A stretch of DNA of 46,932 nucleotides from a virus: UHGV virus genome UHGV-0283311; one strand, written 5' to 3'. The notes beneath the pieces were generated by a model that did no database searches, had not been told where the DNA came from, and saw only the letters and a list, made by a program, of their open reading frames with translations. Shown here in pieces: positions 5,256 through 34,429 of the stretch. A program made the translations under genes and the position numbers. Numbering within the stretch: the stretch's first letter is position 1; the number at the start of each line of letters is the position of its first letter.

Positions 5256-5279
5256 AAGGCTCCTTTTTACGGGAGCCTT
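5256..5279. terminator. bidirectional terminator between convergent genes
   Basis: aaggctcc ... ggagcctt hairpin with A-run on one side and T-run on the other. Confidence 0.65.
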
Positions 5280-5284
5280 AAACT

Positions 5285-5656
5285 TTATTTTTCAGTATTC
5301 TTTGTGTTCTTTTCAGTAATAGCTTGGAGGGCTGATACTGATTGAGCCAGATTGTTCACACTGTCAGAGAATTTATCAAGAGTTTTGGTAAGTTTTGCGT
5401 TTTCACCCTTAACATTCTCTAACTGAACTTTCTGGTTCTCCATCCCTAGCTGAATCAGTCTCATGTCAGACTGTAAATCACGAATAGCTGAATAGTTACT
5501 TTTGGAATAATTATCTAGCTGCTGTAACTTTGTTGTGACAGACACTTCTTGTTTACCACTTGAAACCTGCATCGTGGTATACATCCCAATAACACTAAAA
5601 ATACCAACTACAATTGCACCAATATTATTTTTAAAAGCTTCCTCTAGCCACTTCAT
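5285..5656 (-). CDS. membrane-anchored coiled-coil protein
   Basis: N-terminal hydrophobic segment IGAIVVGIFSVIGMYTT then heptad-like helix; RBS gggggag. Confidence 0.5.
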   Translation of the reverse strand: MKWLEEAFKNNIGAIVVGIFSVIGMYTTMQVSSGKQEVSVTTKLQQLDNYSKSNYSAIRDLQSDMRLIQLGMENQKVQLENVKGENAKLTKTLDKFSDSVNNLAQSVSALQAITEKNTKNTEK

Positions 5657-5850
5657 TTATTCTCCCCCTTAAAAGCTTTTTCTAAGTTATCTACGAACTC
5701 ATCATCAATAGGTGTGTCTGTTTTACTCGCAAGGTATCTTGCAAGCCTAAAGAACACTTTCTCAATCATGTATTCACTTAGAAGGGATAAAATGAGTTTC
5801 CAGAAGAAGCTACCTAGATTTTTTAGAAGAATTGCTAGGATTGTAGGCAT
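5653..5850 (-). CDS. small hydrophobic protein
   Basis: 65 aa, hydrophobic N-terminus, RBS gaggtga; stop overlaps next start. Confidence 0.45.
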   Translation of the reverse strand: MPTILAILLKNLGSFFWKLILSLLSEYMIEKVFFRLARYLASKTDTPIDDEFVDNLEKAFKGENK

Positions 5851-5929: not shown

Positions 5930-8317
5930 TTAAGCAGTTCTTACCCAAGCCATTAACTTGTAGAACTGGTTAGTAACACTAAATGCCGAACCAGAACCTG
6001 TGCTACCAGTGTTACCACTAACTGTGTGGCTATGAGCACCAATACCTACAGAGTGGGAATGGTCACCAGCACCGCTTGTAGTACCAGACCACGTGTGTGT
6101 ATGGTTACCAGTTGTGTTAGTGTTAGGGAACTTGTTATCTTTTCTATCAAGCCAGTCAAGAGTTCTTGTCTTGCTGTTGCTAACAGTTGTGTAACCATAC
6201 TGAGCATCACCACCATTAACTAATAACAGACCTAAGTGGTGAGCGTGGTTGCCAGCAGCACTTGTTGTACCACTTACAGAGTGAGAATGACCACCAGTAC
6301 TGTTAGTTCCCTTCGTACCATAATCAAAAGATGAAGTGGTAGCAGAGAAGCTATGGGTATGTGATGGTAAGTTCCCAACAGCTAACGTCACAGAATCTGA
6401 ACCACCAGTTGTAGCAACATCTGAACCGTTTGCTGCTGCAATTCTGATAGTTCTACCAACACCATTATTCAGGTACGTCCAAGTTAGACCAGGCAACGCT
6501 GTGTTAGGGTCAACATTACTGTTAAACCACGTTACAATGCCTACTGGATAGATTTTATTAAGGTCTGTAGAGTCACTAATTGCTGTTGCAATTTTCTGGT
6601 CAGTTTCTACTTTAGTGTATGCACCAATATCTGAAGGGGTTGGTTTAAATGCCGTTGAATACAACTGTGCCTCTCCAACATATGCTCCATCTGACCCATA
6701 AGCGTATGTGAAGACATCAAGACCTCTAGACCCATATGTAAAAGCGATACCTCTGGCATGAGCAATACCAGCAGAATGTGCTACATGGATGGCTAAATCT
6801 TTCAGACCCTGCTCAATAGCGTTGTTTCTTACAAATCCTGAATAATCTTTGTTGAATGATGATGGGTCATCCAGTCTATTAGCTGTCCTTGTCATTAAAG
6901 ATTGGTTTAATAGTTTTGTTTTCAAGAAATATCTAGCATCTAAGTTAGAGAAATCTGAAGGTTGAACTTGACCAGTAATTCTGACATTTTTATCCAACAA
7001 GAAATCATCTTGCATATAAAGCGTAGTTGCAGTTCTGTCGTTACGGATAGTAAACCTTGTTGGGTTGGATGGTTCCCCATTACCGATGTACCACCTTCTA
7101 ACACCATCAGCATTATGACCAGCAAAGTATAGCTCTCTGTCTTGTGTAGTGTTCTTTAGCTGTAATAATGAGCCATTCAGATTGATAACCTGTACAGACC
7201 TGAAAGTGTTTACATCACTTAGTTTAGCAAGATTACTCAAAGTAGCCGCTGGAATGTATCTAGAATCAATGTTAGACCAATCAGAAGGTTGAACTTGACC
7301 AGCAACCCTAAGCTGCTTGTTAACCTCAACAAAACCATTATCAAGTCTAAGATTAGAGCCATACGTATAGTTGTGGATTAATACAGCAGGTGTATTATCA
7401 CCATTACCTACATACCACTTACCAGAGCCATCACTACTTTCACCTTTAATGTATAGTGCACCATTTGCTATAGTATTTTTTAACCTTAATGCGCCGCTAT
7501 TCGTTAAAATTGATACAGCTTGGTTAAACGTATTAACACCACTAAAAGTATTATTCGCAGCTAACTGTGCAAATCTCTGATTAGCCACTGTCTGAGTAAA
7601 GTATCTAGCATCTAAGTTAGCAAAACTTGAAGGCTGAACTTGGCCAGCAATTTGAAGAGTCCTGTTGACTGTCACCAAATTCTCTAAAATAGCAATTGAA
7701 ACGTCGGACTTTACATTCTTTAATACAAGATTATGTGTACCCCTATTATCATTACCTAGATACCATCTGTTAGTACCATCTGCATCTTGACCACGAAGAT
7801 AGAGTGGAGCACCTTGAGTGATATTTTTGATAATGAGTGCTTCATTGTCAGAGAGGATAGCTTGAGTACCTCTAAAGGTGTTATTTACAGCAAGTCTTGC
7901 ATATCTTGCATCATTCTCTTCATTAGTTCTCATACCAAGCTCATTAGGACTTGGCTTATTCAGAGTATGATAAACGGTTGCCGACCTTGAAGCATCTGCA
8001 ATAGTCAGTTTAAGGCCATTTGCGTTAATTTTAAAAGTCTTTAAAACATCCCCAATATTAATCTCAGAAGAGCCTGTTGGGTTAAATACTACCTTACCAC
8101 CATAAAGTAACTTAACAATCCCTAAGTCACCTGTCATAGTGCTACCAGCAATCTGAACAAATCTCTCAAGTTTAAAAGATGCTAAGAAGTCTTGATAGGT
8201 CATTCGACGGTCTTCATCACCTAGCATTTCAGGTCTCTTTTTAACCCTGACATGAAGAAGGTCATCTGAACGGATTGTATCGATTGAGTTTAATTCACTC
8301 AACTTGTAATCTGCCAT
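5930..8317 (-). CDS. tail fiber protein with His-rich C-terminal tip
   Basis: four internal repeats each ending in an Asn/Gly-rich block ([32 protein letters not shown]); C-terminal HxH-rich [32 protein letters not shown]; position in tail module. Confidence 0.7.
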
Positions 8318-8336
8318 TATAAATTTTCCTCTTAAA

Positions 8337-8354
8337 AGGGGCTATCAAGCCCCT
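8337..8354 (-). terminator. GC-rich hairpin between the two fiber genes
   Basis: aggggct-atca-agcccct; minus-strand transcript has hairpin followed by TTTTAAG. Confidence 0.35.
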
Positions 8355-8363
8355 GTAAAGAAA

Positions 8364-9551
8364 TTAAGCTGTTCTCTGCCATACATACAGTACAAAGGAT
8401 GGCTGCTCAATGTTGAAAGCTTGTCCACCACCAACACTATTAGTGTTCCCGCTATGCGTATGCTCAGAAGAAGAAACTGTTACAGTACCATTGTGTGTAT
8501 GTGAACCAATACCAACTGTGTGGCTGTGAGCACCAATACCAACCGTATGGTTGTGGTTACCAGTTGTGTTAGTGGTAACACTGAAAGAGTGGCTGTGAGC
8601 ACCAGCGACTTCACAGACAGCATCTGCTGAGTACCATGATTGGTCATTTCTTGAAGACCAAACCATTGCAGGTCTTTCAGATAAACCACCACCTGATTCA
8701 TAGGTCAATCTGTGGTTATGAGCACCAGCAGCACTTGTTGACCCACTGCCAACATGGTTGTGGTTACCAGTCGTGTTAGTGGTCTTTGTTCCATAGTCAA
8801 AAGAGTTGGTAGTCTTAGTTCCATAATCAAAAGCTGAAATTGACACAGTTGCATTATGAGTGTGACCACCACCACTAAGAGACACGGAGTGTGAATGTTG
8901 AGGCATGTTATTAACTGACAAAGTGACAGTTGAAGCACCAAATACAGAGCCTGCTGGTCTTGTATCAGAGTCATAACCAACCAATGCTCTACCTTTTGAA
9001 ACTAACTCCCAAGTTCCTCCACAAATTAAATACGTAGAAGGGTTTGCAGAGTTCATGGAAAGATGGATAGTACCTACTGGATAAGAAGCCTGAACAGCCT
9101 TGTACAAGTTATTTACTGCTCTTGCTGTAGCATACTTATCTGCATCTTCGTTATAAAGGTTAGATGTTGTCCAGTTCTGAACATTACTCAATCCTACCTG
9201 TGCCTTAGTTGTATTATGTGGGTTGCTCTTGTCCTGAATATGCTGTTGAACAAGATTATTAACCTCTTCTGAAGACATAATCTGTAGATTTGCTCTTGCC
9301 TGAGCTACATTAGTAACGTCTGATAAGTTATTTGCAGCAACTAACTGAAGAGCATTGATAACGTTATCTAAACCAATTTGTGTTTTAGTAACACCATGAG
9401 GGTTATTTCTTAGGCTTGAGTGTGGAGCAAGTAATTGCTCAAGAGTGCATCTCTTATCCTCAATACCTTGTTTAAGATGGAAGATATCACTAAGGTCAAT
9501 TGGTAAGGCTGCTTGAGGCAAGGCACTAATTTGAATTTCACCTACTGCCAT
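8364..9551 (-). CDS. tail fiber protein (second, shares His-rich tip)
   Basis: C-terminal [25 protein letters not shown] and SFDYGTKTTN repeats paralogous to 5930..8317. Confidence 0.7.
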   Translation of the reverse strand: MAVGEIQISALPQAALPIDLSDIFHLKQGIEDKRCTLEQLLAPHSSLRNNPHGVTKTQIGLDNVINALQLVAANNLSDVTNVAQARANLQIMSSEEVNNLVQQHIQDKSNPHNTTKAQVGLSNVQNWTTSNLYNEDADKYATARAVNNLYKAVQASYPVGTIHLSMNSANPSTYLICGGTWELVSKGRALVGYDSDTRPAGSVFGASTVTLSVNNMPQHSHSVSLSGGGHTHNATVSISAFDYGTKTTNSFDYGTKTTNTTGNHNHVGSGSTSAAGAHNHRLTYESGGGLSERPAMVWSSRNDQSWYSADAVCEVAGAHSHSFSVTTNTTGNHNHTVGIGAHSHTVGIGSHTHNGTVTVSSSEHTHSGNTNSVGGGQAFNIEQPSFVLYVWQRTA

Positions 9552-9553
9552 TA

Positions 9554-17572
<8,019 letters not shown>

Positions 17573-34100: not shown

Positions 34101-34177
34101 TGGAGGCGGGTGCAGGAGTCGAACCTGCCGATACCATGCTAATGAGACATGTGAGACGCCCTTTCTCTATACCCGCA
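34101..34177 (-). tRNA. tRNA(CAT): Met, fMet or Ile2
   Basis: loop CTCATTA, D-stem gaga/tctc, 1-72 mismatch; isotype unresolved. Confidence 0.6.
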
Positions 34178-34267
34178 ATTCTTAATGACCAGACCAAATA
34201 TCTTCTTTGTCCGATTAACTTTCAGATGAGTAGATTAAGTTTGCTGTAATTGGTCTTCTGTCAAAAC

Positions 34268-34345
34268 TGGCGTTCCAGAAGGGATTTGAACCCTCAGATA
34301 TCCACTTTGAAAGAGTGGTGACTTTACCGTTTTGTCTACTGGAAC
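34268..34345 (-). tRNA. tRNA-Glu(TTC)
   Basis: perfect acceptor gttccag/ctggaac, perfect anticodon stem ccact/agtgg, loop CTTTCAA. Confidence 0.8.
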
Positions 34346-34352
34346 ATTAATT

Positions 34353-34429
34353 TGGTCTCTGTTGGAGGACTTGAACCTCCGGCCTTACCGCCCCAAACGG
34401 AACGCTCTACCAAGCTGAGCTAAACAGAG
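34353..34429 (-). tRNA. tRNA-Pro(TGG)
   Basis: perfect acceptor and T-stem, D-arm gctc-agcttggta-gagc, loop TTTGGGG. Confidence 0.75.

Follow-up and report, generated by a model that had tools for sequence, protein, structure and literature searches.

Adjacent tail fibre genes whose products end in tips of the T4 gp37 type have been described in Felix O1-like phages. The Felix O1-like coliphage VpaE1 has two adjacent fibre genes, gp74 and gp75, the C-termini of which are both similar to the T4 gp37 adhesin, and in these fibres the N-terminus is conserved and the C-terminus is variable (PMC4690856). A cryo-EM study of phage Bas63 (Escherichia phage JohannRWettstein) revealed a collar, an HxH needle and a head in both fibres, the density of which was too weak for side chains, and it identified gp25 as the attachment platform of the long fibre (PMC12609058). 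The arrangement is already known for the genus Felixounavirus, the gp37-like ends since 2015 (PMC4690856) and the plan of the tip since 2025 (PMC12609058). The receptor class of the genus is lipopolysaccharide (LPS). In T4 itself, the gp37 needle domain D11, which follows the collar domain D10, contains seven HxH motifs (at positions 883, 915, 929, 966, 980, 989 and 998) and seven iron ions (PMC6957217; PMC12609058), and contact with the receptor is made by the head. The two proteins encoded at the locus described here are very probably the baseplate fibres of a Felix O1-like myovirus, each with a T4 gp37-type HxH tip and with exchangeable head cassettes.

Genomic Context of the Two Fibre Genes

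The window, i.e., the whole stretch of DNA that was analysed (46,932 nucleotides, UHGV virus genome UHGV-0283311), is assigned to Felixounavirus on the basis of its sequence; the DNA identity to genomes of this genus was 93-94%. An earlier note on this DNA had proposed two adjacent tail fibre genes, and both were found as open reading frames with exactly the proposed boundaries. They are listed together with the gene for the putative attachment platform.

8364..9551, minus strand: STF (short tail fibre) gene, 395 aa (open reading frame; Bas63 gp26 orthology; phrog_2097)
5930..8317, minus strand: LTF (long tail fibre) gene, 795 aa (open reading frame; Bas63 gp27 orthology; phrog_4277)
9554..9856, minus strand: Bas63 gp25 orthologue, a 100-aa protein (99% identical to Bas63 gp25)

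By synteny and identity, STF is classified as the orthologue of Bas63 gp26 and LTF as the orthologue of Bas63 gp27, and the full-length identities were 74.6% and 66.2%, respectively. The counterparts of Bas63 gp23, gp24 and gp25 in the window were 97-99.6% identical, and the gene order gp23-gp29, TS, DHFR was common to the window and Bas63. As in Bas63, the fibre genes have the baseplate wedge genes on one side and the thymidylate synthase gene on the other. In the PHROGs analysis STF was assigned to the tail fibre family phrog_2097 (E = 1.6e-136), and LTF matched phrog_4277 over its full length. The name "short fibre" is a label by length only, and the STF tip is classed as gp37-type, not as T4 gp12-type; gp12 chains were absent among the PDB matches to STF and LTF (E up to 1).

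Domain Organization of STF and LTF

The domains of STF are, from the N-terminus to the C-terminus, as follows.

9117..9551, minus strand: STF aa 1-145, putative N-terminal baseplate-binding domain and short helical shaft (conservation; role taken from the cryo-EM of Bas63, PMC12609058)
8898..9116, minus strand: STF aa 146-218, outgoing part of the collar domain, T4 gp10/gp37 D10-type (Pfam Gp10_C; T4 gp10 chains)
8712..8897, minus strand: STF aa 219-280, outgoing needle strand with HxH at 219, 230, 264 and 278 (motif scan and T4 alignment)
8772-8831, minus strand: tandem FDYGTKTTN duplication within the outgoing needle strand of STF (motif scan)
8598..8711, minus strand: STF aa 281-318, head domain, predicted receptor-contacting tip, hypervariable cassette (conservation; heads of orthologues)
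8454..8597, minus strand: STF aa 319-366, returning needle strand with HxH at 319, 333, 342, 351 and 364 (motif scan and T4 alignment)
8367..8453, minus strand: STF aa 367-395, C-terminal segment re-entering the collar (alignment to LTF and to the T4 gp37 C-terminus)

Among 72 orthologues, the N-terminal region was the best-conserved part of STF, with 63-88% identity per 10-aa block, and the sequence NPHxxTKxQxGLxNV is present twice, at aa 50 and aa 110. The collar matched Pfam Gp10_C (PF21939) with an E-value of 1.6e-18 and 68.4 bits (cut-off 27), and it was also matched by the T4 gp10 chains 2fkk and 5hx2. The lowest conservation was observed for the head (aa 281-318/320), with 22-30% identity per block, and the conservation of the C-terminal segment was 65-82%. 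Apart from the FDYGTKTTN duplication, His-box units are also repeated within STF (DNA repeat families D1, D3 and D5).

The domains of LTF were delimited in the same order.

7913..8317, minus strand: LTF aa 1-135, putative N-terminal baseplate-binding domain (conservation; role taken from Bas63, PMC12609058)
6923..7912, minus strand: LTF aa 136-465, three beta-helix shaft repeats of about 112 aa each (Pfam gp37_trimer; DNA repeat family D2)
6362..6562, minus strand: LTF aa 586-652, outgoing part of the collar domain (alignment to the STF and T4 collars)
6239..6361, minus strand: LTF aa 653-693, outgoing needle strand with HxH at 653, 677 and 691 and one FDYGTK (motif scan and T4 alignment)
6104..6238, minus strand: LTF aa 694-738, head domain, predicted receptor-contacting tip (between the HxH blocks; replaced in orthologues)
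6020..6103, minus strand: LTF aa 739-766, returning needle strand with HxH at 739, 753 and 762 (motif scan and T4 alignment)
5933..6019, minus strand: LTF aa 767-795, C-terminal segment re-entering the collar (93-100% identity in all orthologues)

The N-terminal domain was 94-100% identical among 117 orthologues. The shaft matched Pfam gp37_trimer (PF20744) in three stretches (E = 6.3e-59), and each of its repeats ends in GQVQPSxFxNLDARY (motifs at aa 225, 340 and 449); it was variable among relatives, with a mean identity of 0.70. The collar was 97-100% identical in all orthologues, regardless of the type of head. Its match to Pfam Gp10_C was weak (22.9 bits, under the cut-off of 27), and LTF could be aligned with STF and T4 along the whole collar, from the YP(V/I)G motif onwards. 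The HxH motif at aa 691 reads HAHH. In the record of phage KhF2, a "cos site" is annotated inside the LTF gene, which is a 10-nt pattern match.

HxH Motifs and Homology to the T4 gp37 Tip

Blocks rich in HxH and the motif FDYGTK had been noticed in both C-termini, and both were readily verified. STF contains nine HxH motifs, including GNHNH (twice), GAHSHTVG and GSHTHNG, and LTF contains six, including GNHTH and GAHSHTVS. The context G-x-H-x-H was present in 13 of these 15 motifs. When each protein was shuffled 5000 times, the mean count was 1.42 for STF (maximum 8) and 0.52 for LTF (maximum 4). FDYGTK is present once in LTF ([11 protein letters not shown], aa 664) and twice in tandem in STF, i.e., as FDYGTKTTNS and FDYGTKTTNT (aa 241-260). 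The two copies in STF are identical at 24 of 30 nt, and the internal duplication that the earlier note had reported for this gene is located there.

The T4 gp37 tip (2XGF) matched aa 146-367 of STF with an E-value of 1.1e-26 and aa 646-775 of LTF with an E-value of 8.3e-18 (phmmer). A profile built from 43 STF homologues, which reach down to about 40% identity, matched 2XGF with an E-value of 2.1e-25. HxH motifs were found in STF at all seven aligned T4 positions, and two further motifs are present (230 and 364); in LTF they were found at six of the seven positions. The outgoing motifs of STF were aligned to H883/885, H915/917 and H929/931 of T4 gp37, and the returning motifs to H966, H980, H989 and H998, with one extra motif. 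The spacing of the motifs adjacent to the head was equal in STF, LTF and T4, namely 14 on the way out and 14, 9 (and 9) on the way back. In addition, a 56-nt stretch in the returning strand of LTF was 92.9% identical to T4 gene 37. The suggestion that the HxH motifs are metal motifs of the T4 type agrees with these results, as they are homologous to the iron-coordinating motifs of 2XGF and align one-to-one with the seven motifs of T4. Of two further Pfam families, Phage_fiber (PF03335) yielded 14.4 bits with LTF, under the cut-off of 20, and no match with STF, and Collar (PF07484) matched neither STF nor LTF (E up to 0.1), Gp10_C and gp37_trimer being matched instead.

Five histidines, H230, H232, H321, H351 and H353, were invariant in the 43 STF homologues, and five others (H219, H221, H278, H280 and H319) were at least 90% conserved. 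Likewise, ten histidines in five motifs were invariant across 41 LTF and prophage-fibre sequences. The presence of nine HxH motifs was the commonest state of STF, seen in 52 of 73 sequences (72 orthologues and the window's own). In the same 73 sequences the lengths of the outgoing and the returning stem covaried with r = 0.99 (r = 0.93 for the 13 distinct length pairs), with an offset of 11-16 residues in all but one sequence. The length of the head was not correlated with the length of either stem. The covariation of the stems lends indirect support to the predicted course of the chain out to the head and back, which the monomer models described below were too poor to show.

AlphaFold2 was applied to the full STF with 43 homologues (pLDDT 62, pTM 0.25, head 40-43) and to the LTF tip, aa 576-795, with 41 homologues (pLDDT 43), in both cases as a monomer model only. 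A Foldseek search of the PDB with the poor STF monomer model had a best E-value of 0.15 and did not recover 2XGF; among its matches, only the C-terminal domain of T4 gp10 (prob 0.63) was relevant. Poor monomer models are to be expected because the native form would be an interwoven trimer, and models of this kind are uninformative and unusable for judging a metal site. The Foldseek result is likewise regarded as uninformative and not as negative evidence.

This point bears on the possibility, named in the earlier note, that the histidine-rich stretch is a low-complexity flexible linker without a defined fold or metal site. A composition biased towards G, S, T, H and N would fit such a linker, as would the low confidence of the monomer models in this region, but low monomer confidence is just what is expected of an obligate interwoven trimer. 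Furthermore, the linker is contradicted by the significant, position-specific homology to a crystallised domain, by histidines that are invariant among homologues at about 40% identity, by the T4-like spacing, and by the covariation of the outgoing and returning strand lengths, so that its probability is practically nil.

Another alternative is a non-structural role of the HxH motifs, either in catalysis, with a metal centre for the modification of LPS, or via contacts of the histidines with phosphates of the receptor. Many hydrolases have His-metal sites, and LPS is bound by phages of this genus, but no enzyme family was matched in Pfam or PHROGs, and the conservation of the motifs contrasts with the variability of the receptor-specific head. 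In addition, the homologous histidines of T4 gp37 are buried on the axis, and changes of H929 or H931 led to the loss of plaques, the iron being termed critical for folding and structure by the authors (PMC6957217). A non-structural role is, thus, extremely unlikely, and a structural role of T4-type metal motifs is preferred.

Comparison of the STF and LTF Tips

The C-termini of STF and LTF could be aligned over about 255 columns with 35% identity (E = 6e-23), and they have several identical short motifs in common ([15 protein letters not shown]). This similarity could mean that one tip was placed on two shafts when the genome recently underwent an internal duplication or gene conversion, and that the same receptor is bound at two reaches. 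However, the identity of 35% is not above that of either fibre to T4 gp37, which is 37% for STF and 39.5% for LTF. The heads have only 7 identities in about 45 aligned columns, and the best DNA stretch common to both genes is 80 nt long with 73% identity. The nearest relatives of the two tips also differ, i.e., XTG1 for STF (99.3%) and ECML-1 for LTF (94.5%). One recently copied tip on two shafts is, therefore, very unlikely. Instead, STF and LTF share only the scaffold, i.e., the collar and the needle stem, and not the tip proper, and their heads are essentially unrelated. The two tips are old paralogues of one widespread family, which are no closer to each other than to T4 gp37. The shared tip postulated in the earlier note is, thus, retained as far as the common scaffold is concerned, but not as a module shared within this genome. 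As their head loops differ completely, STF and LTF are probably specific for different features on the surface of the host, the surface target of the genus being LPS.

Exchange of Head Cassettes between Phages

In some LTF orthologues with a 99-100% identical collar the head was swapped for three other types, which had 11-17% identity and one of which was T4-like. The diversity was also high for STF, the orthologues of which carry more than 25 unrelated head sequences atop conserved collars; one example is P0014, with a 100% identical collar and an 11% identical head. Heads of the T4 type were found on the scaffold of LTF (P0193) and on that of STF (P0016). The exchange could be delimited by comparison with gp37 of the T4-like Shigella phage SHBML-50-1 (KX130864).

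6031..6336, minus strand: LTF aa 661-763, needle-plus-head cassette common to SHBML-50-1 gp37 (306 nt, 88.2% identity)

The match stops abruptly at FDYGTK on one side and at GIGAHSH on the other, and at the protein level the identity was 88% over 109 aa. With T4 itself, DNA matches in this region were confined to the two stems flanking the head. Modular diversification of receptor binding, which had been suggested on the assumption of one tip on two shafts, is indeed seen at this locus; that arrangement was not found, and the modularity that the comparisons demonstrate is an exchange of head cassettes between phages on a constant collar.

The coding stretches for G-x-H-x-H and FDYGTK that flank the head probably serve as recombination joints. 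This idea is based on the breakpoints seen here and on the "His boxes", which Tetart et al. reportedly described as recombination joints in 1998; a literature search for "His boxes" found no paper using this term.

Chaperones and Downstream Genes

The folding of T4 gp37 requires the chaperones gp38 and gp57A (PMC6957217), which are a feature of the T4 system and not of the fold. Homologues of gp38 or gp57A with an E-value better than 0.095 were found neither in the window nor in the complete Bas63 genome (tblastn and phmmer, single-sequence queries). Two conserved small open reading frames are located directly after the LTF gene, at 5653-5850 (65 aa) and 5285-5656 (123 aa). Both belong to PHROGs families of unknown function; Pfam yielded no match for the 65-aa protein and sub-threshold matches of the coiled-coil type for the 123-aa protein. 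It is doubtful that the gp37-type needle folds here without the T4 chaperones. In this case, the dependence on chaperones may map outside the cassette and the Felixounavirus collar may make the tip self-folding, or the 65-aa and 123-aa proteins may act in the assembly of the fibre as a factor of a new kind.

Discussion

Each of the two fibres is predicted to be a homotrimer, with the N-terminus docked on the baseplate and the C-terminus forming a gp37-type receptor-binding tip. The tip would consist of a collar, a thin needle, in which the chains run out and back and thereby place six strands around the axis, and a small head at the turn. The HxH motifs would face the axis, and the three chains would provide six histidines per metal ion, which is iron in T4; the alignment to T4 predicts nine ions in the short fibre and six in the long fibre. 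The histidines would be structural staples and not readers of the receptor. Specificity would reside in the head loops, which are wholly different between STF and LTF, and related phages exchange the head as a cassette, alone or together with parts of the stem.

As a discovery this has little weight, the finding being real but ordinary. Its practical value is the map, i.e., the exact coordinates of the scaffold and the head in both fibres. The collar stays constant while heads are exchanged, and even T4-like phages take part in this exchange; the joints at FDYGTK and GIGAHSH are natural cut points for host range engineering in Felix O1-type phages, which find use in diagnostics and biocontrol of Salmonella and E. 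coli.

With the tip of T4 gp37 both fibres share the YP(V/I)G start of the collar, FDYGTK, the register and spacing of the G-x-H-x-H motifs, and a variable head between the strands. In contrast, the number of HxH motifs is seven in T4, nine in STF and six in LTF, and the head sequences are unrelated to that of T4. Furthermore, the T4 tip is part of a long fibre of four proteins, whereas here it is part of much shorter single-protein fibres. SHBML-50-1 differs from LTF everywhere outside the cassette, i.e., in the collar, the C-terminal end, the shaft and the phage family, and it has a T4-type gp38 directly downstream of gp37. An HxH needle with 37-41% identity and ten invariant histidines is also present in side tail fibres of lambdoid prophages of E. 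coli and Shigella. Their N-terminal parts differ from those of STF and LTF and they match Pfam Collar (PF07484) and Phage_fiber (PF03335); Collar does not match STF and LTF, which match the related Gp10_C instead.

Within the Felix O1-like phages, VpaE1 differs in the heads, and the DNA matches break at the head, resulting in two pieces with a coverage of 69-73%. The similarity to Bas63 includes the baseplate-binding domain, the shaft, the collar, the HxH needle and the head as elements of the fibre, but both heads of Bas63 are unlike those described here. The STF of Bas63 has seven HxH motifs and lacks the two head-proximal outgoing motifs, in contrast to the nine motifs of the STF in the window. 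The LTF proteins of both phages have six HxH motifs and one extra adjacent histidine, which results in HxHH here and in HHxH in Bas63.

Short and long tail fibre genes

The DNA identity of the window to Felixounavirus genomes, e.g., NRG857CP1 and Shigella phage Z31, was 93-94%. The gene order was an exact match to that of Escherichia phage JohannRWettstein (Bas63, MZ501086), i.e., baseplate wedge 2 (489 aa), baseplate wedge 1 (285 aa), a 100-aa protein, a 395-aa fibre and a 795-aa fibre, followed by two small ORFs and then by convergent thymidylate synthase and dihydrofolate reductase genes. The fibre genes, which are separated by a gap of 46 nt, and the small ORFs are:

8364..9551, minus strand, short tail fibre (STF) gene, ORF of 395 aa
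5930..8317, minus strand, long tail fibre (LTF) gene, ORF of 795 aa
5653-5850, minus strand, small ORF of 65 aa directly downstream of the LTF gene, 100% identical to Bas63 gp28
5285-5656, minus strand, small ORF of 123 aa, second of the two directly downstream of the LTF gene, 97.6% identical to Bas63 gp29

The baseplate proteins were 97-99.6% identical to those of Bas63, and the fibres, with 74.6% (STF) and 66.2% (LTF), were well below this level. Because gene order and identities match Bas63, the 395-aa fibre is taken to be the gp26-like STF and the 795-aa fibre the gp27-like LTF, following the naming of the Bas63 cryo-EM study (PMC12609058).

Both C-termini carry a tip of the T4 gp37 type

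The earlier note had claimed two adjacent fibre genes with HxH-rich C-termini and an internal duplication in the STF gene, and both claims were verified. Nine HxH motifs were found in the STF and six in the LTF, nearly all in a G-x-H-x-H context; these counts were never reached in 5000 shuffles (means 1.4 and 0.5, respectively). The FDYGTK motif is single in the LTF, and in the STF it forms a tandem pair (aa 241-260, window 8772-8831), the copies of which are identical at 24 of 30 nt and represent the internal duplication.

Also the proposal that the HxH blocks are metal-binding motifs of the T4 type was supported at the level of homology. The crystal structure of the T4 gp37 receptor-binding tip (2XGF) matched STF aa 146-367 (E=1.1e-26), LTF aa 646-775 (E=8.3e-18) and a profile of 43 STF homologues (E=2.1e-25). 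The needle domain D11 of T4 gp37 contains exactly seven HxH motifs (at 883, 915, 929, 966, 980, 989 and 998). In a six-sequence alignment the STF had HxH at all seven positions, plus two extra motifs (230, 364), and the LTF at six of the seven. The spacing of the head-adjacent motifs was the same in all three proteins, namely 14 on the outgoing and 14, 9 (and 9) on the returning side. The first HxH is preceded by a collar of the type seen in T4 gp10 and in gp37 D10; Pfam Gp10_C matched there in the STF (E=1.6e-18) and weakly in the LTF. In T4, seven iron ions sit in D11 (aa 882-1009), a domain inserted into the collar, and changes of H929 or H931 abolish plaque formation (PMC6957217).

The motifs could alternatively have been a low-complexity linker. 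Five histidines (H230, H232, H321, H351, H353) were invariant in the 43 STF homologues, which extend down to about 40% identity, and five further ones (H219, H221, H278, H280, H319) were at least 90% conserved in the same set; among LTF orthologues and the fibres of lambdoid prophages, ten histidines did not vary. This conservation down to about 40% identity and in prophage fibres rules out the linker reading, and the histidines are under selection. Most STF sequences (52 of 73) have nine motifs and not seven. For Bas63, our own count was seven in the STF and six plus one extra histidine in the LTF, in agreement with PMC12609058.

The two C-termini aligned at 35% identity (E=6e-23), which is not above their identities to T4 gp37 (37% for the STF, 39.5% for the LTF), and the best shared DNA stretch was 80 nt at 73% identity. 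The possibility that one tip had been copied onto two shafts was therefore rejected, and the tips are old paralogues.

Topology of the needle

The STF outgoing and returning stem lengths were highly correlated (r=0.99 for 73 sequences, i.e., 72 orthologues and the window's own; r=0.93 over the 13 distinct length pairs), with an offset of 11-16 residues in all sequences but one, and head length was uncorrelated with either. A chain that runs out to the head and back requires that both stems vary in length together. The covariation thus supports an out-and-back needle, as support rather than proof because the sequences are kin.

Structure prediction had been suggested as a check in the earlier note. 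AlphaFold2 monomer models were of low confidence (STF: pLDDT 62, pTM 0.25; LTF tip: pLDDT 43), and Foldseek with the STF monomer model gave no significant match. As the expected fold is an interwoven trimer, monomer models say nothing for or against a His-lined site. Cryo-EM of Bas63 revealed collar, HxH needle and head in both fibres, in density without resolved side chains (PMC12609058), so that metal binding in the genus is as yet an inference.

The head is exchanged between phages

The head, which lies where the outgoing HxH block has ended and the returning one has not yet begun (STF aa 281-318, LTF aa 694-738), has a T4 counterpart that contacts LPS and OmpC (PMC6957217). The STF and LTF heads had 7 identities in about 45 columns. 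Of the tip shared by two different shafts that had been proposed, the scaffold is thus common to both fibres, and the head is not.

Eight of 117 LTF orthologues had a collar of 99-100% and a C-terminal end of 93-97% identity together with another head; these belonged to three other types (11-17% identity), one of them T4-like. More than 25 unrelated heads were found among STF orthologues, in which conservation was minimal at aa 281-320; in one (P0014) the head was 11% and the collar 100% identical, and another (P0016) had a T4-like head. The suggested modular receptor-binding diversification is therefore real between phages, as head exchange on a constant collar, but not as one tip on two shafts.

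At the DNA level, window 6031-6336 (LTF aa 661-763) matched gene 37 of SHBML-50-1, a T4-like phage of Shigella, with 88.2% identity, and the match ended sharply at FDYGTK and GIGAHSH. For T4 itself the DNA match was limited to the two stems flanking the LTF head. Conserved His-box coding stretches reportedly act as recombination joints (an old idea ascribed to Tetart et al. 1998), and the cassette breakpoints fit this idea.

A Felixounavirus long-fibre tip (87.9% DNA identity) was also found at 85970-86558 of GU169904.1, a record labelled as a 147-kb Staphylococcus phage (SA1); mixing or contamination in the assembly seems a likelier source than real exchange.

Shafts, downstream ORFs and intergenic hairpins

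In the LTF shaft (aa 136-465), a repeat of about 112 aa that closes with GQVQPSxFxNLDARY occurs three times (Pfam gp37_trimer, E=6e-59). The second repeat (aa 284-347, window 7277-7468) weakly matched T7 tail fibre gp17, in the C-terminal part of that protein (PDB 4A0T/4A0U, E=0.003). Among relatives the repeats were unexpectedly variable (mean identity 0.70), as also remarked for Bas63 (PMC12609058). The N-termini of both fibres were highly conserved; in Bas63, the N-terminus of the STF attaches to wedge 2 and that of the LTF to the gp25 platform (PMC12609058). The STF family profile (positions 68-118 of 397) matched a recent PDB entry (9zd7 chain AE, 'short tail fiber gp92', E=1.4e-14), approximately in the N-terminal shaft with its NPHxxTKxQxGLxNV repeats.

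The 65-aa and 123-aa ORFs, which are conserved, both have a hydrophobic N-terminal segment, the latter also a coiled-coil-like C-terminus, and they matched only PHROG families without known function (phrog_402, phrog_4038). The place that they occupy after a fibre gene is the usual site of fibre chaperone genes, or of the holin gene in T4. Folding of T4 gp37 requires gp38 and gp57A (PMC6957217). Although both fibres bear gp37-type tips, homologues of these chaperones were detected neither in the window nor in the complete Bas63 genome (tblastn, phmmer; best E 0.095-0.5), in single-sequence searches that could therefore miss remote homologues.

Between the STF and LTF genes lies a hairpin (GGGGC-ttgata-GCCCC, then TTTT; 8334-8354, minus strand); next comes AAGAGGAAA, which resembles a Shine-Dalgarno sequence and precedes the start codon of the LTF. 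The hairpin might act as a weak terminator or an attenuator and so set the ratio of STF to LTF expression; owing to its short T run, it was not called in a terminator scan. In phage KhF2 a terminator is annotated in the STF-LTF gap on the opposite strand. At 5256-5279, AAGGCTCC...GGAGCCTT forms a perfect hairpin with T runs on both strands; it resembles a bidirectional terminator and separates the last fibre-operon gene from the convergent thymidylate synthase gene. Elsewhere in the window, 25 tRNA genes, tRNA-His(GUG) among them, are clustered at 29275-34429 (minus strand), as is typical of Felixounavirus.

Proposed mechanism and comparison with known fibres

The data presented here demonstrate homology, motif register and cassette exchange; for the trimeric state, the binding and identity of the metal, and the receptor, we infer the following. 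Each fibre would be a trimer anchored to the baseplate, and the HxH motifs of the three chains would bind a column of metal ions, nine predicted in the STF and six in the LTF. This column would stiffen the thin needle and hold it in register, and the receptor would be read by the head loops. LPS is the receptor for the genus; Bas63 requires an intact core, and the Felix O1-like coliphage VpaE1 makes use of the truncated core of E. coli B (PMC4690856). As their heads are unrelated, the STF and the LTF most likely recognise different features of the surface.

Tips of the gp37 type on both fibres are already known. Homology of both C-termini to the T4 adhesin was reported for VpaE1 in 2015 (PMC4690856), and the Bas63 study of 2025 described the plan of collar, needle and head and counted the di-histidine motifs (PMC12609058). 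The small additions made here are the nine-motif STF as the common state, the covariation of the stem lengths, and the breakpoints, now defined, of a cassette that is also present in a T4-like phage.
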